Part shown: positions 51,895 to 64,000 of the stretch, one piece after another
Layout of the letters: each line of letters starts with the position of its first letter
Numbering within the stretch: the first letter of the stretch is position 1
Assembly (NCBI GenBank): GCA_964016885.1
Contig: OZ024743.1
Coordinates: 190,960,001-191,024,000 of the forward strand
Direction of reading: 5' to 3'
Length of the DNA stretch: 64,000 bases
Source: Eledone cirrhosa
Lineage: Eukaryota
Notes under the pieces: generated by a model
The model's input: only the letters and a program-made list of their open reading frames with translations
The model's database searches: none
What the model was told of the DNA's origin: nothing
Position numbers and translations under genes: made by a program

Positions 51895-52010
<116 letters not shown>

Positions 52011-52157
52011 TATTTTCCGTTGTGTTGTAATATAAATATTACACACAGTAGATTATCAGCTCACGTAGAGTTTGCTCGACGGTTCCAGTTGTAGTTCCAA
52101 AAGTAATCCGGAGAAAAATAGAAAGATTTGAATGGATACAGTTTAGTTGAAAGGAAT

Positions 52158-52274
52158 TTATTGACACGTGTTTCTATAACAGTTACATAACCTAAAACAG
52201 CTATCTACAAACTTTTAGTTATGCAGACATTCAATATTTCAATGTTATTATTTACTGTCATTTCATCAGAATAA
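52158..52274 (-). ncRNA. Branched-stem-II hammerhead in the 3' pLTR
   Basis: Reverse complement of 54673-54789; one C>T difference converts a G-C pair to G-U. Confidence 0.75.
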
Positions 52275-52860
52275 TATTACTGAGGACCTATTTAGTTTTT
52301 ATAGAGAATATTAGGAGGGAGGGGTGAAGTTGTTAGAAGAATAGTTGAAGGAGTGGTTTTTCGATAGCAGTGAGAATTCTTGGTGGCAGTGAGTAATTAG
52401 ATTCCCATCTGTTGTTTTGACATTTTTTATAGAATATATTATTGGTTATTTTTCTAAATCTATAGAAGGATTAGAGATAGTGAAGATATGCGTGGTTGGT
52501 TTTGTGTTTGCACTTAATTAACATTCAGACTTAAATTTTTCTTTCAAGTGTACGTATCCTTTCACCCACGCATTCACACACAAATATATTTGCACACCTC
52601 TACAAAATACATATACACACAATTCACATATTCATACTTACATATATATACACATGCATACACATATATATACACACATGTATTCATGTACATACATACG
52701 CGCTCATGTGTATACATTTTCATACTCAACTTATCTTTATATACACACGTATAGACACACACATATATACATACATACTCTAGTCCATGTGTACACACAT
52801 ACACATACATACACATCCATATACACATATATACATACACATATATACATACATATATAC

Positions 52861-52923
<63 letters not shown>

Positions 52924-53246
52924 CATACATACACAAACATACATATACACACATATACATATATATATATATATATAAGCACTTTAATACATGAATACAC
53001 TTACATCTAACTATACACATCAAACATATATATATATTTACTTATTTATATACATTTTCACATATATATACATACTTATGGACGTTTTTAGACACATTCA
53101 TTATCGCATATTTGTACCTATTCTCATCAGCATATCTTTTCATTATTAGTATGGTAATTTAAGGTTATTAATATATGTTGAGAAGAGATTGTTTTTATAT
53201 TTTTCTAACTAGATTAAGGTTTATATAGTTGGGGGATGTCCCTCTT

Positions 53247-54386
53247 TTATGTAATATTCGGCTTGTAGTGGGAAAAAAGGGTTTTAGTTCTGTGACGGCA
53301 GAATAATGTTCGTTCAATTCTGTTATTCAGCAGTTTCTTCTTGTGTGTGATTATGTAATAAATCTCAAGATTACACAATTTGCAGAAATTTTGGCTCCTG
53401 GAAAAGCTTTGGGTTTTAGCTAATTTTTCCCATTTTAGGGTAAACTTTTGATCGCTATCCCTGAGCGTCCAAGCTTTTTCTGCTAGAGTTGTTACATTTC
53501 TTTGGCTCTGGTGTTTTATTGAGTAAGAATGCCTATACAATCGAGATTTAAACGATGTTGCCGTTGATCCCACGTAATACCACTCGTTGCCTCCGGATTT
53601 AATGGTACACTTATAAATAATATTTTTTTCCAGGCAGTTATTGCCGAGGGGGCAGTTGTCAGGATAGGTGCAGTTACAGTTGTGTACGTTGGGTTTTCTC
53701 TGGAGTAGTATTGCGGACGAACTTAGGTGTGGTTTATTTATGTTCTGTAGTGTATTGTCTACTGTTTTTTTTGTGTTCTTTGTACTTAAGTTCTTAGTGT
53801 TTTCGTTTAACCTTCTAGTATTGATCTTTTTTATGTGTTGTTCAAGGTTTAACGCTGTAGAGTATGACAGTCTTATAGTGGTAGGGTTTAGGATTTTGTG
53901 GTATTTGTGTGATGTGGGGAAAATGTCTTTTAATTATTTTAAAGAAGAGTACTGGTAAATTTGTACTAATGGAGCTATTGTATTCGGGGTTATACCATAA
54001 GTACTCTTTGCATCGCTTTCTATTAGTTTTGTTTGTTGGTTTACTGGTGTGCATACTATGGTAGTAAGTGTGGTTTGGTGTTGTGTTATTATATCTACCT
54101 ATGTGGGATTTATTTTGGGTGTTTTGATTGTTCCCATCTATGTACTCTATTTTGTTGAGGTAGCCTGCTTTACTAAGGGCGTTATCGTAGTACTCGGCGT
54201 GTTCCTTAAATACTTGTATGTTAGAAGATAGACCCGAGATTCTAAGGGAAATATTTTTAAGGATAGATTTAATTATAGAGATGGGGTGGTTAGACCCAAC
54301 ATTTACGTATTTGAGATTTTCATTCAATTTATGAAACGGTTTAATCAAACCAGAGTTTAAATTGAGTGTGACATCCAGGAAGTTAA
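53247..54386 (-). pseudogene. PLE RT thumb + CxC + GIY-YIG (frameshifted, 5'-truncated)
   Basis: ORFs 53842-54399 and 53247-53573 plus the intervening frame. Confidence 0.9.
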
Positions 54387-54672
54387 AGGATACGTACACT
54401 TGAAAGAAAAATTTAAGTCTGAATGTTAATTAAGTGCAAACACAAAACCAACCACGCATATCTTCACTATCTCTAATCCTTCTATAGATTTAGAAAAATA
54501 ACCAATAATATATTCTATAAAAAATGTCAAAACAACAGATGGGAATCTAATTACTCACTGCCACCAAGAATTCTCACTGCTATCGAAAAACCACTCCTTC
54601 AACTATTCTTCTAACAACTTCACCCCTCCCTCCTAATATTCTCTATAAAAACTAAATAGGTCCTCAGTAATA

Positions 54673-54789
54673 TTATTCTGATGAAATGACAGTAAATAAT
54701 AACATTGAAATATTGAATGTCTGCATAACTAAAAGTTTGTAGATAGCTGTTTTAGGTTATGCAACTGTTATAGAAACACGTGTCAATAA
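54673..54789 (+). ncRNA. Branched-stem-II hammerhead in the inverted pLTR
   Basis: TTATT-CTGATGA-A-ATGACAGT-AAATAATA-[ACATT..AATGT]-C-[TGCATAAC..GTTATGCA]-ACTGTTAT-A-GAAA-CACGTG-TC-AATAA. Confidence 0.78.
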
Positions 54790-54826
54790 ATTCCTTTCAA
54801 CTAAACTGTATCCATTCAAATCTTTC

Positions 54827-54941
<115 letters not shown>

Positions 54942-55246
54942 GAATTGAAACAAAATGAAAACGAAATTTCATTTCTCACTCTTAGTATGGCACTTACTTA
55001 AATGTAAGTATGCATGTATACGTACATACATATATGTATACAGACGTACAGTAGCATGCACATATATATATATATATATATACATATATACATACATATG
55101 CATACAGGTACACATACATATATGCACGTATCAGTTTAGCGGCGCTAACGTCGCTTTGTTCGTTTGTAAACAAACTGAACAGCCTGAATTTATGCCATAC
55201 GGTGTTAAGGCAACCACGTCACCTTTTTGTTCAACACTGACACAGG

Positions 55247-55291
55247 AACGATGTACTAGTTTCAAGCTTGTTAGCTATCATCAGCACCGTT
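55247..55291 (-). ncRNA. Minimal hammerhead (inverted unit)
   Basis: Reverse complement of 55929-55973. Confidence 0.9.
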
Positions 55292-55928
55292 TACCCATCT
55301 GCCAGATAGTTGAACGTTCGAAAGTATATACTTTCCTTATGAAAATTAACGGCTGAGCAGCCTAATTTGCATATTGAGTGAGTTAAATCGGTCAGGCATA
55401 CCGAAAACGATAAATTGAAACAAAATGAAAACGAAATTTCATTTCTCACTCTTAGTATGGCACTTACTTAAATGTAAGTATGCATGTATACGTACATACA
55501 TATATGTATACAGACGTACAGTAGCATGCACATATATATATATATATATACATATATACATACATATGCATACAGGTACACATACATATATGCACGTATC
55601 AGTTTAGCGCCGCTAAACTGATACGTGCATATATGTATGTGTACCTGTATGCATATGTATGTATATATGTATATATATATATATATATGTGCATGCTACT
55701 GTACGTCTGTATACATATATGTATGTACGTATACATGCATACTTACATTTAAGTAAGTGCCATACTAAGAGTGAGAAATGAAATTTCGTTTTCATTTTGT
55801 TTCAATTTATCGTTTTCGGTATGCCTGACCGATTTAACTCACTCAATATGCAAATTAGGCTGCTCAGCCGTTAATTTTCATAAGGAAAGTATATACTTTC
55901 GAACGTTCAACTATCTGGCAGATGGGTA

Positions 55929-55973
55929 AACGGTGCTGATGATAGCTAACAAGCTTGAAACTAGTACATCGTT
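55929..55973 (+). ncRNA. Minimal type-I hammerhead
   Basis: AACGGTG-CTGATGA-T-AGCT-AACA-AGCT-T-GAAA-CTAG-TA-CATCGTT. Confidence 0.92.
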
Positions 55974-56396
55974 CCTGTGTCAGTGTTGAACAAAAAGGTG
56001 ACGTGGTTGCCTTAACACCGTATGGCATAAATTCAGGCTGTTCAGTTTGTTTACAAACGAACAAAGCGACGTTAGCGCCGCTAAACTGATACGTGCATAT
56101 ATGTATGTGTACCTGTATGCATATGTATGTATATATGTATATATATATATATATATGTGCATGCTACTGTACGTCTGTATACATATATGTATGTACGTAT
56201 ACATGCATACTTACATTTAAGTAAGTGCCATACTAAGAGTGAGAAATGAAATTTCGTTTTCATTTTGTTTCAATTTATCGTTTTCGGTATGCCTGACCGA
56301 TTTAACTCACTCAATATGCAAATTAGGCTGCTCAGCCGTTAATTTTCATAAGGAAAGTATATACTTTCGAACGTTCAACTATCTGGCAGATGGGTA

Positions 56397-56441
56397 AACG
56401 GTGCTGATGATAGCTAACAAGCTTGAAACTAGTACATCGTT
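56397..56441 (+). ncRNA. Minimal type-I hammerhead
   Basis: Identical copy at +468. Confidence 0.92.
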
Positions 56442-56864
56442 CCTGTGTCAGTGTTGAACAAAAAGGTGACGTGGTTGCCTTAACACCGTATGGCATAAAT
56501 TCAGGCTGTTCAGTTTGTTTACAAACGAACAAAGCGACGTTAGCGCCGCTAAACTGATACGTGCATATGTATGTGTACCTGTATGCATATGTATGTATAT
56601 ATGTATATATATATATATATATATGTGCATGCTACTGTACGTCTGTATACATATATGTATGTACGTATACATGCATACTTACATTTAAGTAAGTGCCATA
56701 CTAAGAGTGAGAAATGAAATTTCGTTTTCATTTTGTTTCAATTTATCGTTTTCGGTATGCCTGACCGATTTAACTCACTCAATATGCAAATTAGGCTGCT
56801 CAGCCGTTAATTTTCATAAGGAAAGTATATACTTTCGAACGTTCAACTATCTGGCAGATGGGTA

Positions 56865-56909
56865 AACGGTGCTGATGATAGCTAACAAGCTTGAAACTAG
56901 TACATCGTT
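56865..56909 (+). ncRNA. Minimal type-I hammerhead
   Basis: Identical copy at +936. Confidence 0.92.
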
Positions 56910-57332
56910 CCTGTGTCAGTGTTGAACAAAAAGGTGACGTGGTTGCCTTAACACCGTATGGCATAAATTCAGGCTGTTCAGTTTGTTTACAAACGAACAA
57001 AGCGACGTTAGCGCCGCTAAACTGATACGTGCATATATGTATGTGTACCTGTATGCATATGTATGTATATATGTATATATATATATATATATGTGCATGC
57101 TACTGTACGTCTGTATACATATATGTATGTACGTATACATGCATACTTACATTTAAGTAAGTGCCATACTAAGAGTGAGAAATGAAATTTCGTTTTCATT
57201 TTGTTTCAATTTATCGTTTTCGGTATGCCTGACCGATTTAACTCACTCAATATGCAAATTAGGCTGCTCAGCCGTTAATTTTCATAAGGAAAGTATATAC
57301 TTTCGAACGTTCAACTATCTGGCAGATGGGTA

Positions 57333-57377
57333 AACGGTGCTGATGATAGCTAACAAGCTTGAAACTAGTACATCGTT
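57333..57377 (+). ncRNA. Minimal type-I hammerhead
   Basis: Identical copy at +1404. Confidence 0.92.
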
Positions 57378-57625
57378 CCTGTGTCAGTGTTGAACAAAAA
57401 GGTGACGTGGTTGCCTTAACACCGTATGGCATAAATTCAGGCTGTTCAGTTTGTTTACAAACGAACAAAGCGACGTTAGCGCCGCTAAACTGATACGTGC
57501 ATATATGTATGTGTACCTGTATGCATATGTATGTATATATGTATATATATATATATATGTGCATGCTACTGTACGTCTGTATACATATATGTATGTACGT
57601 ATACATGCATACTTATATATATATG

Positions 57626-57712
<87 letters not shown>

Positions 57713-57771
57713 ATAATTGTTTCTACATTTGACACAAGGCCAGTAATTACCCAATACATTACTGGTACTTT

Positions 57772-58407
57772 AAATTATTTACCCTGATAGTGGGGTTAAG
57801 CACACTCGGAGAAATGGAAAAAGATGAGTATTGACGTACATGGGAGTCGAAAATATTCTTACTTGACATTACAGTTGCTAAGATTATAGCTTCTAATTTG
57901 AATGGAAAACGACGGGTGATATGTTGGTGTAAATGGTAGCACAGTGGTCTGGATAACCAAAGCTGTGGGTTTGACTCCGATGTACGTCAATACTCATCTT
58001 TTTCCATTTCTCCGAGGGTTCTTAACCCCACTATCAGGCTAAATAATTTTCTTTAATTTCTTTAGTCAAAACACGGCGGTAGTTTACATTTATAATTTCA
58101 AACTCGCTCGCTGTTTCGAAAATATTCTTACTTGACATTTACAGTTGCTAAGATTATAGCTTCTAATTTGAATGGAAAAAGACGGGTGATGTGTTGGTGT
58201 AATGGTAGCACTGTGGTCTGGATAGCCAAAGATGTGGTTTCAACTACCATATACGTCAAAACTCATCTTTTCCCATTTCTCCGAGGATTCTTAACCCCAA
58301 TATCAGGCTAAATAATTTCTTTAATTTCTTTAGTCAAAATACGGCGATAGGTTACATTTATAATAATTTCAAACCCGCTCGCCGATTCGAAAATATTATT
58401 ACTTGAT
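57772..58407 (+). repeat. ~270-bp tandem unit (x2) with a tRNA-like segment, preceded by a short inverted copy; bracketed by SINE tail fragments (57716-57772 minus, 58625-58698 plus)
   Basis: TGGTGTAAATGGTAGCAC..GGTTTGACTCC A/B-box-like motifs at ~57925-57979 and ~58195-58248; 57772-57846 mirrors 57973-58049. Confidence 0.7.
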
Positions 58408-58876
58408 ATATATATATATGTATATATATATGGAAAACAAAGAATCAGTGACACTTTTATTTGTATAAAATCATTTTTTAATGATTTCATACGAATGGAG
58501 CAGTTCCAGACGTACAAATTTAATGTATATATAAAATAAATATACATAACATCTACTAACGTATAGAGGTATGGAGGAGCTTTGTTGACTGAAATTATTT
58601 CCGAATCCCCTTCGAGATGACACCCTTCATTAGATAAAATAAAGTACCAGTAATACACTGGAATAATTGCTGGCCCTGTGCCAAAAGTAGAAACAATTAT
58701 ATATATATATATGTGTGTGTATATTGTTATACTTTGGGAGGGTCATGTTGCCAATAAGAAACACACGCACCAGTCGCATTCACTTCAATTTATTATAAGT
58801 TAAATTTATAAATTTAGGAATTTATAAATTTCCGGTTGGTCGGTTGGTTCCACAACCAGCCGATTGTTTATATATT

Positions 58877-58984: not shown

Positions 58985-60430
58985 TATATTATGAACTTTT
59001 TCTTCGGCCCAGATCTTTTCCCAGAATTCTTGCACTTCCTCCTTGGGTGGTATTGATTTAGCAGTTATTTTTTTACTTTTTATTTATTGACTTGCCAATT
59101 TTTCTGTAGAAGTTTCTTTGGTTGTTTTTGAACATATTATTGTCCTTATAGAATCTAGATCGTTTTTCAAAGCGGCTTATACGAGCAGCTTTGGCCGACA
59201 CTTTTTGCTTGATTATTTCTATCAGCATGTCTATGTCACTTGTTGATTTTATACTCTATTTTCTTTTCAATTTTCTAAGTTTAGTTTGTTTAATGTGATC
59301 ACCTACTTTGTAGTTTGTTAACATTTCTATGTCAGATCGGAGAAGGTTTATTTGGCGATTGATGTTCTCTTGCCAAATAGATTTCTTGTGGGAATTCCTT
59401 TGTTTTTTTCATTTTCCCTCCACATATGTGAGTGGTGACTTTAGCCGATGCATAATATAGATGATTTAAATCAGTAATGTTTAGTTTGTTTGTGATGATA
59501 ATGGTTTGAGAATTATGTTAGTCTTGTGTATTATCTTTTGGTTCGGTTTGGAGTTCTGGATCTTAGGGAGATTGTCTCGTTCCCCCATGTCAGATTCTTT
59601 CATTTTCATCCATTCGATCATAATTTCATCCTTCAAGTTGGCAAGTTCATTCTCATTCATTTCTTTATCATTTACGATCTCATTGTTTGGAGTTTCATCT
59701 TGAGCATGCACTCCCTCCACTTTTTCGATCCTTTCTTTAATTTGTTCTGTTGTCAGTGATTCCACCCCAACCCTGGGATTCGAAGTGTTACAATTTACCT
59801 CGTTTTCACTGACACGTTTCATTTTCCCTTCGCTGACTTTGTGCTAATAGTTTGATCTAATCAATTTCTATATTAGTTAGTAACTTTTTTTTACAATATT
59901 TCTTCGTATATTGGCTAGTTTGTTACTGTCAATATAGCCTCTGTTTTCGGGATGTTTCTTTTTCTAGTTGATATATGTCTGTTCTGTATTCGATCTATTT
60001 GATGGCAGTGTAGAAATCCTCAAGGACTTCTTTATTGTCTTCCTTTGACCATTTTTCTCTCTTTTTCTTTCGATTTCTTGGTGGTGAGCATGGAGGGCCA
60101 GCTGTAGGAGTATTCCGGTGATGGGAGGTCTCCAGCTCCGAAATGATGGGAAGGTTTAACCTTTAGCTGATTTTTCGACCCCAGTCTGGTTCCTCTGTGA
60201 GAGACTCGGCCCTTTATGACCCGGGTAACGGCCGATCCGGTATGAGATTTTACCATTTGACATTTACTTTATTTTGTCGCGTTGTATCCTTAACCGCCAA
60301 GGGGTAATCATTTCGTGTTACCACTTCTAGGACGAGTGTCAACCAAACTAGAGGGGTCGTCCTCCCCTATAGACACGGCTATTCCCCGCCGGCCGCCATT
60401 CCGGTATTTCATGGTCACGGGGTTTTCTTG
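58985..60430 (-). mobile_element. 5' portion of an R4/Dong-like non-LTR element, decayed
   Basis: Minus strand AKAARISRFEKRSRFYKDNNMFKNNQRNFY..P.KEEVQEFWEKIW, homologous to the N-terminal region at 63500-63900; upstream limit uncertain. Confidence 0.65.
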
Positions 60431-61094
60431 GCTATGTCAGTGGTGGTGCTGGGGCTTTTTCTATTGTTGGTGGGGAAGGGATAGTGGTAGCAATGATTGA
60501 TGGAGTGGTGGCGGCGGTGACTATAGTGATGGCGTTGTCGTTACTGAGTTTTGTTGAATAGACTGTAGTAGTATGCGTTTGTTTGACCTGTGTATCTATG
60601 CGATTTGTCGCGTATGTTTAATATATGTGTTGACATATTTACTTAATATTTCAATTAAACATTTTGAGAAAACTTGAGATACAATAATAGTAATTATTAT
60701 TATTATGCTGGGATTGGTGGTGAAATTTCCGTTATCTGGCTGTTGTGTTTAGTGTACACAGAGGAGTGATGGGATAGGTGGTGTATCTAGCTTGTGGTGT
60801 TGGTGAAATTGCTGTTATTTGGCTGTTATATATAGTGTAGACAGAGGGGGTTTTCTTCCATTTCTAACCATTTTTTTTTTTTAATATAAGATTTATAATA
60901 CAAAATTGAATATTTGAGCGATATAACAGGATATTATGGATTCGAATTTCCTGAGAGCGAAGCCCGGCGCTTTATGTCCCATTTGTACTACGAATTGTTA
61001 TATCACAATGGTTTTAAATATGGTAAAAAAACAAAAACTTACGGGAACGATTCCATAACACTCTATTCACCACGTGCGCCTTCTTCCCTATCTT

Positions 61095-64000
61095 TATTAT
61101 TATAATTATTATTATTGTTCTTTGAGTCTCAGTCATGGATGTTATTTAACTGGAAAGTTTGTTGAGATGAATATCAAGCCGCTACCTGCAGCTTCAGATA
61201 TTCAGGACCTATCGGAGGGTTCTTGCTGTTGCCAGCAAGCATGCCTTTTGAAGTGTTCCAAAAAGCAGCGCTAGACAAACATTCTTTAACCATCCTTGGA
61301 AACGTTTTGAGATAGTACCTAGTGCGCCTATGACAATCGGGACCACTTTGACCTCATGGCAGTTACAAATCCTTTTTACATCCCAATTTAAATCCTAGTA
61401 TCGGTTAATTTTCTCCCTCTCCTTTTCTTGCACTCTCGTGTCAAATGGGCAGGCTACATCTACAATCAGGCATGATCTGTTTTCCTTGTCCAAAACACCA
61501 GGTCAGGCTTATTGTGTTCCAGTTTCTTGTCCGTCTGTATCCTAAAATCCCATAGCACCTTCACCTGATCGTTTTCTATCAACAACTCTGGCCTATGCTC
61601 ATACCACTTCTCAGAATGTGGTAAATTGTTTACTTTGCACATGTGCCAGTGGATCACCCTGCCCATCACATCATGTCTCCAGCCCTTATAGTGAGTCAGG
61701 GCTAGGTTTTTACACTCGGATACAATGTGAGCCACAGTCTCCTCTCTCTCTCCACACATCCTGCACAGTGGGCTAGCCTCCTCCTTGTAAATATGGTGTT
61801 TCAGCCACTTCGTTTTGAGGGCCTGCTCTTGCGCAGCCATTAGCATTCCTTGTGTAGCCTTGTTAAGCTCTCCTCTTTTCAACCACTTCCATGTCTGTGG
61901 GTCTCTAAATTCAGTTTTCTCAAAGAAGGTACTATGAAGGGATTTTTCATGAAGGTTGCTCTTTCTCCTTGTTATTTCCTCCTTGGACATCCCCTGGTCT
62001 ATTGTCCTCTCCTTCAGTACAATTCTGAGCATTGGCTCCCTACTATCGGTCACGTATTTGTGTAGGTTGTTTTTCTCCATCTGAACACAGTCTTCTATGC
62101 TGATAAGACCTCTTCCACCTTCAGATCTCCTTAAGTAGAGTCTATCGACATCACCCCTCTTGTGGAACATGCTGTAGATAGTCAATAGCTTCCTAGTCTT
62201 CCTATCCATTTCTTTTTGTTCAGCAACATTCCATCTCAGAATTCCCGTACTGTACCTAATAATAGACACAGCTCGGGAATTTACTGCACTTATGGCATTC
62301 CTACTGTTCAGATGTGACTTTAATACGCTCCTTACTCTCCGAATGTATTCAGTTCTTATCAATTCCTTCATTTTTTTGTTCTTGATGTCATCAGCCTCCA
62401 GAACACCTAAATATTTGTATCCTTCTTCGGTATCAATTTCCTTTATCATCTCACCTGTTGGTACCTGGATTCTGTTGCCTCTGCTCAATTCACCCCTCTT
62501 CATCTCAAAGACTCCACACTTACTAATACCAAATTGCATACATATTTCATTGCTGAAAATACGGACAGTGTCAGCAAGCACATCCAACTCCTTCTCACTC
62601 TTCCCGAATAGCTTAAGATCGTCCATGAAGAGCAGGTGATTGATGGTAAGCCCTTCCTTTTCCAACTTGTATCTTGCGCTTACTTTTGGCAGTATAATGG
62701 TCAGGGGGATCAGGGCAAGGCAAACAACAGAGGGGACAAACTATCTCCCTGGCAGATATCTCTCTTGATCTTCACGCCTCCCAAGGATTCTCCGCCCGAT
62801 GTTAACTCTGTTTTCCAGGACTTCATACTTTTGCTCAACAACTGTCTGATGTTATCTGCCACACTGAAGATCTCTAGGATTTTGGTCATCCAAGAATGAG
62901 GTACCATGTCGAATGCCTTTTTGTAGTCTATCCATCCCATGGCAAGACCAGTGTGTCTCCTCTTGCAATTCCTCATTACCTTTCCAATTATCTTATCAAT
63001 AAGTAGCTGGTCCTTTGTACCACGGGACTTCTTTCGGCATCCTTTCTGTTCGTCCGGTTATAAGTTGTTTATGTTGAGGTGATGGTAGATTTCCTCAGAC
63101 ATAATGCTTGTTAACAGTTTCCACATTACGGACAGCATGTGATAGGTCTATAGTTGGTAACATCATTAGCCTTGGTTCGGTCTTTCATTACTAGAACTGT
63201 GGTACCTTTTGTCTACCACTCTGGTACCTCCCCTGACATCAAACAGTCATTGAACATGGTTGTCAGTTTCGGGTGGAAGGATGTTTTATTTTTAATCCAA
63301 TACCCCTGCACACCATCTGGGCCTGGTGATTTCCAGTCGGTTAGTTTTCTGGCTGCCCCTTAAGAGTTTCAACTGTGATACTCAAATCAGTTTGTTGGTG
63401 TGCCTGTTCACTAATCTCCTTTTGTACTGTCTCAATCCACACTGCCTGATCATTATGTTCAACATCCTGCTCCTATATTCCCCTCCAGAATGTCTTAGTT
63501 TGTTCCGCCTCGGGGATCAAGTCGTTGCCTCTTTCTTACTCTTCAAGCTGTCCAAACAACATCTTCTGGTCGTCGTCAAACATGCGGTTATGTCTATATT
63601 GACTGACTCTGCTCTTGTATCGCCTAATATTTGCGCTCCCTTGCTACAATGCGTTGCTTCAGTTCCTCTATGATAATATTTAGATTTTTCCTCCTAGGTT
63701 TGTACTTCATTTCCAGTCTATTTTTAGTGTCTATGTTTTGTAATGTCCCATTCAGTAGGGACTCAAGCTTTCCAATGTCATTTCTCATTTCCCTGATTTT
63801 ACCATTCAGTCGTTTCTTCCACCATGGTGGAATCTTTCTTGTTTGTTGGTTTCTCTCGCTTTTATGCCAAGTAATTTCCTCACCGCATTTACTGTTGCTT
63901 TGAGGATATTGTTGCACTGGTGAAGGTTCCTCGCCTCAAGGTATGGGATGACTTTGTTTACCTTAGCTGCTGTTTCTTTTAACTTTTTCCTGTCTACAAA
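61095..64000 (-). mobile_element. R4/Dong-clade RLE LINE (RT, CCHC knuckle, restriction-like EN) with a (TAA)n 3' end; disrupted and runs off the window
   Basis: [77 protein letters not shown]. Confidence 0.93.

Follow-up and report, generated by a model that had tools for sequence, protein, structure and literature searches.

A hammerhead retrozyme array of Eledone cirrhosa with the end anatomy of PLE insertions

The array in the window and its surroundings

The 64,000-nucleotide stretch of Eledone cirrhosa DNA analysed here (the window) carries at positions 54943-57615 a head-to-head array of a 468-bp unit with a G+C content of 36%. The right arm (55604-57615, plus strand) comprises 4.3 copies at a period of 468 according to Tandem Repeats Finder; three of its four whole units are identical, and the third unit has a 2-nt loss and a 2-nt gain, both within TA runs. 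The left arm (54943-55609, minus strand) is inverted and, with 667 nt, 1.4 units long. Both arms meet at a 13-nt near-palindrome that is present in every unit (55604-55616), and the sequence forms a perfect palindrome over 546 nt on either side of the central base 55610. We count unit positions from the predicted ribozyme cleavage site (u1 = 55967); on this scale, the right arm has its 3' end, at 57615, at u247-248, whereas the left arm reaches u309 at its 3' end, 54943, and thus bears at its outer end, and nowhere else in the array, a tail of about 60 nt (u249-309; 54943-55003, minus strand) that contains an AU-rich hairpin. Both flanks of the array are (TA)n (54827-54941 and 57616-57709), and any target-site duplication, which in retrozymes exceeds 4 bp when present, would be masked by them. 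The arms differ from each other in one TA run, and their flanks differ as well. The near-identical tandem units, the large palindrome near 55610 with some 670 bp inverted at the left, and the embedding in (TA)n had all been noticed in the original prediction, and each was borne out.

The open frames inside the array are of low complexity (99-135 amino acids), and none of the array gave a match to a PLE protein. The 468-nt unit folds far more stably than shuffled versions of itself (z = -8.9), a TA-rich hairpin contributing much of this signal.

A separate insertion of a Hydra-type PLE family, designated P1, adjoins the array on the left. Its long arm (52008-54385, minus strand) is 5'-truncated and frameshifted and contains the RT thumb, the GIY-YIG domain and the pLTR, with a 110-nt tail at 52008-52117; the short arm (54382-54829, plus strand) is an inverted, tail-less pLTR. 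The two form an inverted repeat with arms of 448 nt and two differences, so that the adjoining inverted-pLTR PLE proposed earlier is real. A reading of this 448-bp inverted repeat as convergent RT-coding sequence was dropped, since the full unit shows it to be the pLTR. Elsewhere in the window lie a head-to-head insertion of the Hydra-type PLE family P4 (2453-6430), another decayed Hydra-type PLE that is 30-47% identical to P1 (12280-14909, plus strand), two tandem 269-bp tRNA-derived SINE-like units (57710-58412, with an Rfam tRNA match at 58188-58258) and a broken non-LTR retrotransposon with RVT_1 and zf-RVT matches (59481-63935, minus strand).

The hammerhead ribozyme

Each unit carries one type I hammerhead. 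Four copies lie on the plus strand of the right arm (55929-55973, 56397-56441, 56865-56909 and 57333-57377, with cores starting at 55936, 56404, 56872 and 57340), and a fifth on the minus strand of the left arm (55247-55291, core start at 55284). All five cores are identical, and the consensus predicts cleavage after 55966 in the first plus-strand copy and, on the minus strand, after 55254. Helix I comprises 7 bp, and helix II 4 bp with a U.U pair at its base, as is also the case in HHR_Amex2 of the axolotl, at least in the available text of Cervera and de la Pena 2020 (PMC7229834). Helix III consists of the palindrome ACUAGU, that is, 2 bp with a 2-nt loop, and is consequently unable to close in a monomer. 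At its gathering thresholds Rfam missed the motif, its sole match being tRNA-like.

The number, orientation and integrity of the ribozymes and the palindromic nature of stem III stand as originally described, while the label "minimal" does not, because a helix III of 2 bp is present. The min-HHRs of PLEs, in the portion of PMC4209133 that was available, have neither helix III nor loop 3 and possess a long helix II, whereas the retrozyme combines a 2-bp helix III with a 4-bp helix II; the motif therefore fits the usual metazoan type I form better. Between the window's family (family A) and a sister family described below (family B), 6 of the 12 ribozyme pairs have changed on both sides, and 92% of the ribozyme cells pair, compared with at most 59% when the comparison is slid, both figures resting on two sequences.

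The window holds four further type I candidates that belong to other families (at 10800, 11287 and 16056 on the plus strand and at about 19690 on the minus strand), and at least eight ribozyme families occur in the loci fetched from the genome, helix II in many of them beginning with U.U or U.C at its base. At 6164-8200 of locus L039 lies one more hammerhead repeat, the third, whose period is 310 bp; it has seven plus-strand copies and one minus-strand copy and is apparently also head-to-head. L163, L170, L207 and L230 hold older family A relatives, in which helix I pairs are swapped and the cores read CUGACGA.

Two related families across the genome

A 35-nt core of family A has 10,471 exact matches in the 3.0-Gb genome and none when reversed as a control, so the motif is not a product of chance. 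The array is one member of a non-LTR retrozyme family. The first 100 core places correspond to 53 loci on one contig (C1); all of these were fetched, together with four other loci that have the joint of the window array and 14 more that were picked by variant. As loci were selected by an exact hammerhead match, the sample is biased towards young and intact copies. Among the first 100 core places, neighbours within 1.6 kb are divergent in 16 pairs and convergent in none. At L040/L041, two arrays face each other across 2.3 kb of TA-rich sequence.

Family B is 71% identical to family A and has 5,196 exact cores. It was found at L128 (2235-3004), L195-L206 and L239-L242, with a unit of 465-468 bp, a canonical G-C pair at the base of helix II and a helix III as in family A; its arrays contain up to 11 plus 11 ribozyme copies and obey the two-end rule set out in the next section. 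L128 had been considered as a parent pLTR, an assignment that was dropped when it turned out to be this sister retrozyme. Two further arrangements were also seen: the outer flanks of the array at L039 (2220-2270 and 5890-5930) share a short outward-reading sequence, as if the array lay inside another inverted structure, and at L244 (4050-6500) the TA tract of a family A unit hosts another tandem repeat, of about 520 bp.

Two fixed ends and a single tail

Family A arms stop at one of two sites about 60 nt apart, u247-253 (site 1) or u306-312 (site 2), and then run into (TA)n. Among 114 terminal arms, a count conditional on retention of the u205-245 anchor and in which a few overlapping loci may figure twice, site 1 accounts for 53, site 2 for 56 and other positions for 5; 109 of these anchored ends pass into (TA)n. 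A handful of arms stop earlier, within the TA-rich part of the unit. At the 57 loci and in the window, no arm ends at the ribozyme cleavage site.

The two ends are not distributed at random over an insertion. One site-1 and one site-2 end are combined in 36 of the 38 readable head-to-head insertions (binomial test against 50%, p = 3e-9); the two others (L048 and L233) have two site-1 ends and hence no tail, and an insertion with two tails was not encountered (0/38). The 38 readable insertions derive from 44 joints, of which 34 are made up of 29 from C1 and 5 of the window type, and 10 are variant-selected; at L037, L063, L073, L082 and L084, where the unit chain overshot or stopped short, the end class was taken from other readouts. 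In the C1 sample, which was chosen by position only, the rule of one tail per insertion holds in 25 of 26 cases (p = 4e-7 against 50%), and in family B it holds in all 11 readable insertions (one further insertion was unread). Neither the tailed nor the tail-less arm is consistently the longer one.

The original prediction had interpreted the left arm as a 5' inversion of the kind seen in PLE insertions and had suggested that other loci might begin and end at permuted positions. In fact, the outer end of the inverted arm is the second of two fixed, family-wide end sites, and across loci the 3' sides are fixed and only the joints vary. Since it ends at the fixed site 2, the inverted arm behaves as a second primed 3' end, and "5' inversion" is better read in this sense. 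The ends of the retrozyme are those of the known "tail" signature of PLEs, for which a tail on one of two inverted pLTRs had already been reported, in the sections available, by Arkhipova et al. 2013 (PMC3846280) and Craig et al. 2021 (PMC8557442).

PLEs as candidate partners

No reading frame for an RT plus GIY-YIG protein was found in the retrozyme unit itself, nor one that lies consistently upstream of its arms, whereas the genome contains several intact Hydra-type PLE families with open frames of 785 (P1), 809 (P3) and 784 (P4) amino acids. P1 exists in many identical copies, its 785-amino-acid frames lying in 3,578-bp tandems. This frame shows the RWK and DKT motifs, a CxCx5C linker, CxxC and CxH motifs and, at its C terminus, a GIY-YIG domain, and the element targets (TA)n; the same motifs and target are listed for the Hydra clade in the consulted part of PMC8557442. 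The Atlas neighbours of the P1 frame bear HTH_animal and GIY-YIG domains, and no Pfam matches were obtained in the PLE frames. A descriptor search of both strands detected no canonical hammerhead in the P1 unit, while one is present in P3. A complete hammerhead postulated for the P4 end had 0 matches. In P1, which is young and abundant, a decayed hammerhead look-alike follows the stop codon (L113: 4335-4392; about 53075-53135 in the window, minus strand); hammerheads have been reported as universal in the Hydra clade, unlike the situation in P1.

The rule of one tail per insertion also applies to the PLEs, in seven of seven readable P1 pairs (that of the window included; two were unread) and in the four P3 pairs that were seen. 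At the sequence level, comparison of the retrozyme unit with the 3' regions of P1, P2, P3 and P4 gave no significant match; neither these regions nor the 1.4 Mb of fetched loci contained a pLTR homologue of the unit among the matches listed, and a profile of the tail run over the same 1.4 Mb recovered families A and B only, again among the matches listed. The neighbouring PLE can therefore not be named as the partner: P1 shares the end design of the retrozyme and no detectable sequence with its unit.

Three mixed insertions, all of which obey the one-tail rule, join the retrozyme to other PLE families. At L044 and L066, a tailed family A arm stands head-to-head with a tail-less P4 end, and at L050 a tailed P3 arm with P3 endonuclease sequence is fused to a tail-less family A arm. 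Because P4 ends are very common (15,135 exact matches), such structures may be neighbours that were fused by deletion. We consider P4 the best candidate partner. Its 3' ends also occur in thousands as palindromic stubs of 200-300 bp (L213-L232 and L253-L257), each with one tailed arm (80 nt) and one tail-less arm.

A model for the insertion of retrozyme arrays

The biochemical properties of a PLE protein have been studied in vitro by Frangieh et al. 2024 (PMC11167929). The protein, a predicted dimer, cleaves its target on both strands and extends them; it starts at two internal sites of the RNA, the interval between them corresponding to the tail, and on either strand the two start sites are employed equally. 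RNA that was linear and uncleaved formed the main substrate, and insertion proceeded normally with ribozyme mutants.

In the pathway that we envision for the retrozyme, hammerhead cleavage, presumed to be incomplete and dimer-dependent, followed by ligation, would generate circular RNAs of one to three units. A Hydra-type PLE reverse transcriptase-endonuclease acting in trans would cut both strands of a (TA)n target and, as a predicted dimer (PMC11167929), would prime cDNA synthesis from both target ends, with site 1 inside the RNA as the start of one cDNA and site 2 as that of its counterpart. The ribozyme site would be traversed several times in each cDNA, most probably through rolling synthesis on the circular RNA; the 3' ends of the two cDNAs would then join through microhomology, in the window at the self-complementary 13-mer, and repair would complete the head-to-head insertion. 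We consider double priming by a PLE protein to be very probable, and the complete scheme, in which it is combined with circular templates, seems to us probable on balance. Counting against the scheme are the two insertions that have no tail (L048 and L233) and the lack of sequence similarity between the unit or its tail and the PLEs compared. A more specific version is put forward as a tentative proposal: the PLE dimer may carry out a coordinated, asymmetric, double-ended reverse transcription in which one subunit always begins at site 1 and its partner at site 2, each rolling round hammerhead-made RNA circles that comprise one, two or three units, and in some cases with two different RNAs as templates, the retrozyme on one side and P4 or P3 on the other.

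Haplotypes, periodicity and the form of the template

Units differ by 1.4% within arms (178 pairs), by 1.5% between the arms of an insertion (117 pairs) and by 4.7% between loci (10,001 pairs), all three values being inflated by partial copies. Both arms of an insertion share one haplotype, and there is one template per insertion. In B1, for example, all 19 units are identical over both arms and differ from those of other loci at 7-17 positions. The view, already expressed in the original prediction, that the window array is a young retrozyme that arose in a single insertion with the marks of PLE retrotransposition is supported.

Not all arrays are homogeneous at the level of the single unit. 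In L090, the unit series P,Q,R stands in triplicate in one arm and twice over (P,Q,R,P,Q,R) in its counterpart, with the outer 315 nt of one arm breaking the period-3 pattern. B4 has a period of 3 in one arm only, L241 a period of 2 and L091 a period of roughly 2; L233 is composed of homogeneous unit blocks, and in L088 the arms share three units in register with an offset of one unit. The single 468-nt circle that had been proposed as the template fits the window locus and does not fit the arrays of period 2 or 3 (L090, B4, L241), so that the template was not always one such circle. The periodic arrays would be explained by circular templates one to three units in size, together with occasional switching. 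It should be noted that in the old array L237/L238, which has more than 30 units, private changes are common to neighbouring units and local duplications are present, so that DNA-level expansion also occurs and is able to mimic periodicity.

The most serious alternative retains double priming by the PLE protein and has it act on a linear transcript, uncleaved and multimeric, of an array already in place, a circle being unneeded and the hammerhead playing a minor role in insertion. The equal use of both start sites on the two strands in vitro, the preference for uncleaved RNA and the normal insertion of ribozyme mutants (PMC11167929) favour such a linear multimer; L090 and L088 fit a single linear template that was primed in adjacent units; P1 spreads without a hammerhead that the descriptor search would recognize as intact; and with its U.U pair and a helix III of 2 bp the ribozyme is predicted to cleave weakly (compare HHR_Amex2 in the accessible text of PMC7229834). 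Against this stand the long homogeneous arrays in many haplotypes, which require a step from one unit to many, and the exact period-3 repeats and the homogeneous blocks of L233, which are natural products of rolling and switching. In addition, no source array for the unit order of L090 was found among the other loci that bear the variant C402T, and circles are the main RNA form of the retrozymes of other animals in the available part of PMC7229834. We regard the linear transcript as rather unlikely and favour circles over it by about 2 to 1, a preference that leans on PMC7229834; if double priming by a PLE is granted, a circular template appears fairly probable.

Head-to-head joints and the origin of the second arm

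Head-to-head structures were found at 29 of the 53 sampled C1 loci. In total, 43 candidate joints were listed, of which 34 were kept and 9 (L044, L051, L055, L065, L068, L071, L075, L078, L080) were dropped as microsatellite-only or unclear, although those of L068 and L078 may be real. The 29 C1 joints are all distinct, the positions of two of them having been taken from a separate reading, and they connect different unit positions in 27 cases. Overlaps of 1-7 nt occur at 20 of them, as judged from BLAST ends and partly attributable to chance. An enrichment of 5' ends at the ribozyme cleavage site was not seen, as none of the 34 joints falls at u1 and three fall at u450-465.

For PLEs, Arkhipova et al. 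2013 (PMC3846280) and, in the sections consulted, PMC8557442 proposed that an inverted arm arises from a single primed cDNA through self-priming fold-back at a hairpin, the tail being a product of endonuclease resolution. Several features of the retrozyme are in keeping with this idea: the joint in the window is palindromic and coincides with a hairpin inside the unit, it recurs at five loci with differing arm lengths and haplotypes while its reciprocal was encountered at none, the central base at this shared joint stems from the non-tail arm in all five loci, and the order of units in L090 is mirrored from the joint. Yet only 2 of the 29 C1 joints lie at self-complementary spots, the other 27 being non-palindromic. 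Moreover, in L090, L091 and L092 the arm with the tail exceeds in length the one from which the hairpin would have come, and that of L092 contains sequence absent from the other arm; the tailed arm is therefore not merely a fold-back copy. Simple fold-back fails on these two counts, and the mixed-family insertions L044, L066 and L050 likewise speak against it, so that we judge it improbable as the general origin of the second arm. Fold-back or annealing at the hairpin may nevertheless form the palindromic joints after both ends have been primed, in keeping with double priming.

Still less probable, indeed very much so, is a satellite that grew and inverted at the DNA level by unequal crossover, slippage or extrachromosomal DNA circles and without any RNA step. 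The local duplications in L237/L238 agree with it, and Li, Clavereau and Pollet (bioRxiv 10.64898/2026.07.22.740005; hereafter Li et al. 2026) favour, in the part available, local amplification once a PLE end has been copied; it gives no account, however, of the dispersal into (TA)n, the fixed pair of ends, the one-tail rule that coding PLEs also obey, the exclusively divergent orientation or the compensatory changes in the ribozyme. An inversion created by chimeric reads or assembly, palindromes being a known product of amplification and of fold-back reads, is scarcely credible, for it would have mirrored the flank, whereas the window arms differ in their patterned ends, flanks and TA run, and head-to-head loci make up the majority of the C1 sample with joints that are all different.

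Comparison with known systems

Non-LTR retrozymes and their proposed dependence on PLEs are already published (PMC7229834; Li et al. 2026), and the comparisons that follow refer to those parts of the cited sources that were available. Like the family described here, the metazoan non-LTR retrozymes are tandem, non-coding units of a few hundred bases with less than 50% G+C; they carry one type I hammerhead per unit with a weak, palindromic helix III, and they occur in thousands of copies beside PLEs. The unit length of 468 bp lies just above the range of 150-450 bp given in PMC7229834 and inside the 51-972 bp of Li et al. 2026. Whereas their link to PLEs consists of co-occurrence, a shared ribozyme type and homology to the pLTR, the link reported here is the anatomy of the insertion.

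Insertions of endonuclease-positive PLEs of the Hydra clade (PMC3846280, PMC8557442, PMC11167929) share with the retrozyme arrays the head-to-head inverted and 5'-truncated copy, the (TA)n target, the tail at one end and the two internal start sites. The retrozyme differs from them in that it is non-coding, has a tail of about 60 nt instead of 30-40 nt, and can be multi-unit in both arms; a tail at exactly one end is near-obligatory in the retrozyme and optional in the PLEs. The non-autonomous Chlamys elements such as MRC1 (PMC8557442) are, like the retrozyme, non-coding passengers of PLEs with a multicopy head-to-tail organization. Unlike the retrozyme, they are similar to the 3' ends of the autonomous elements that they accompany, and hammerheads are missing from most Chlamys elements.

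A further likeness exists to the twin priming of L1, in which both target strands prime cDNA synthesis and microhomology-mediated joining produces an inversion. In twin priming, annealing of the second primer takes place upstream of the first cDNA, at an internal site that varies; the retrozyme, by contrast, has two fixed starts next to each other, and its arms are copies of one and the same region.

Implications

The movement of retrozymes, the inverted ends of PLEs and the one-sided tail are described as open questions in the available text of PMC7229834, PMC8557442, PMC11167929 and Li et al. 2026. The main-text literature searched, which includes few subscription journals, offered no description of inverted arms, fixed paired ends, tails or a higher-order periodicity in retrozymes. 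This class of element was known before, as was the one-sided tail of coding PLEs; what the family adds is a 468-nt non-coding RNA that bears the whole end signature of a PLE at thousands of loci, alongside intact candidate enzymes. Its unit constitutes a minimal template with two predicted start sites and a short list of candidate proteins, and the higher-order periodicity of its arrays offers a means of telling circular from linear templates. Should the coordinated double-ended reverse transcription tentatively proposed above prove true, PLEs would be directly shown to move retrozymes, oligomeric circles would be real intermediates, and the tail and inverted end of PLEs would result from double priming instead of self-priming.
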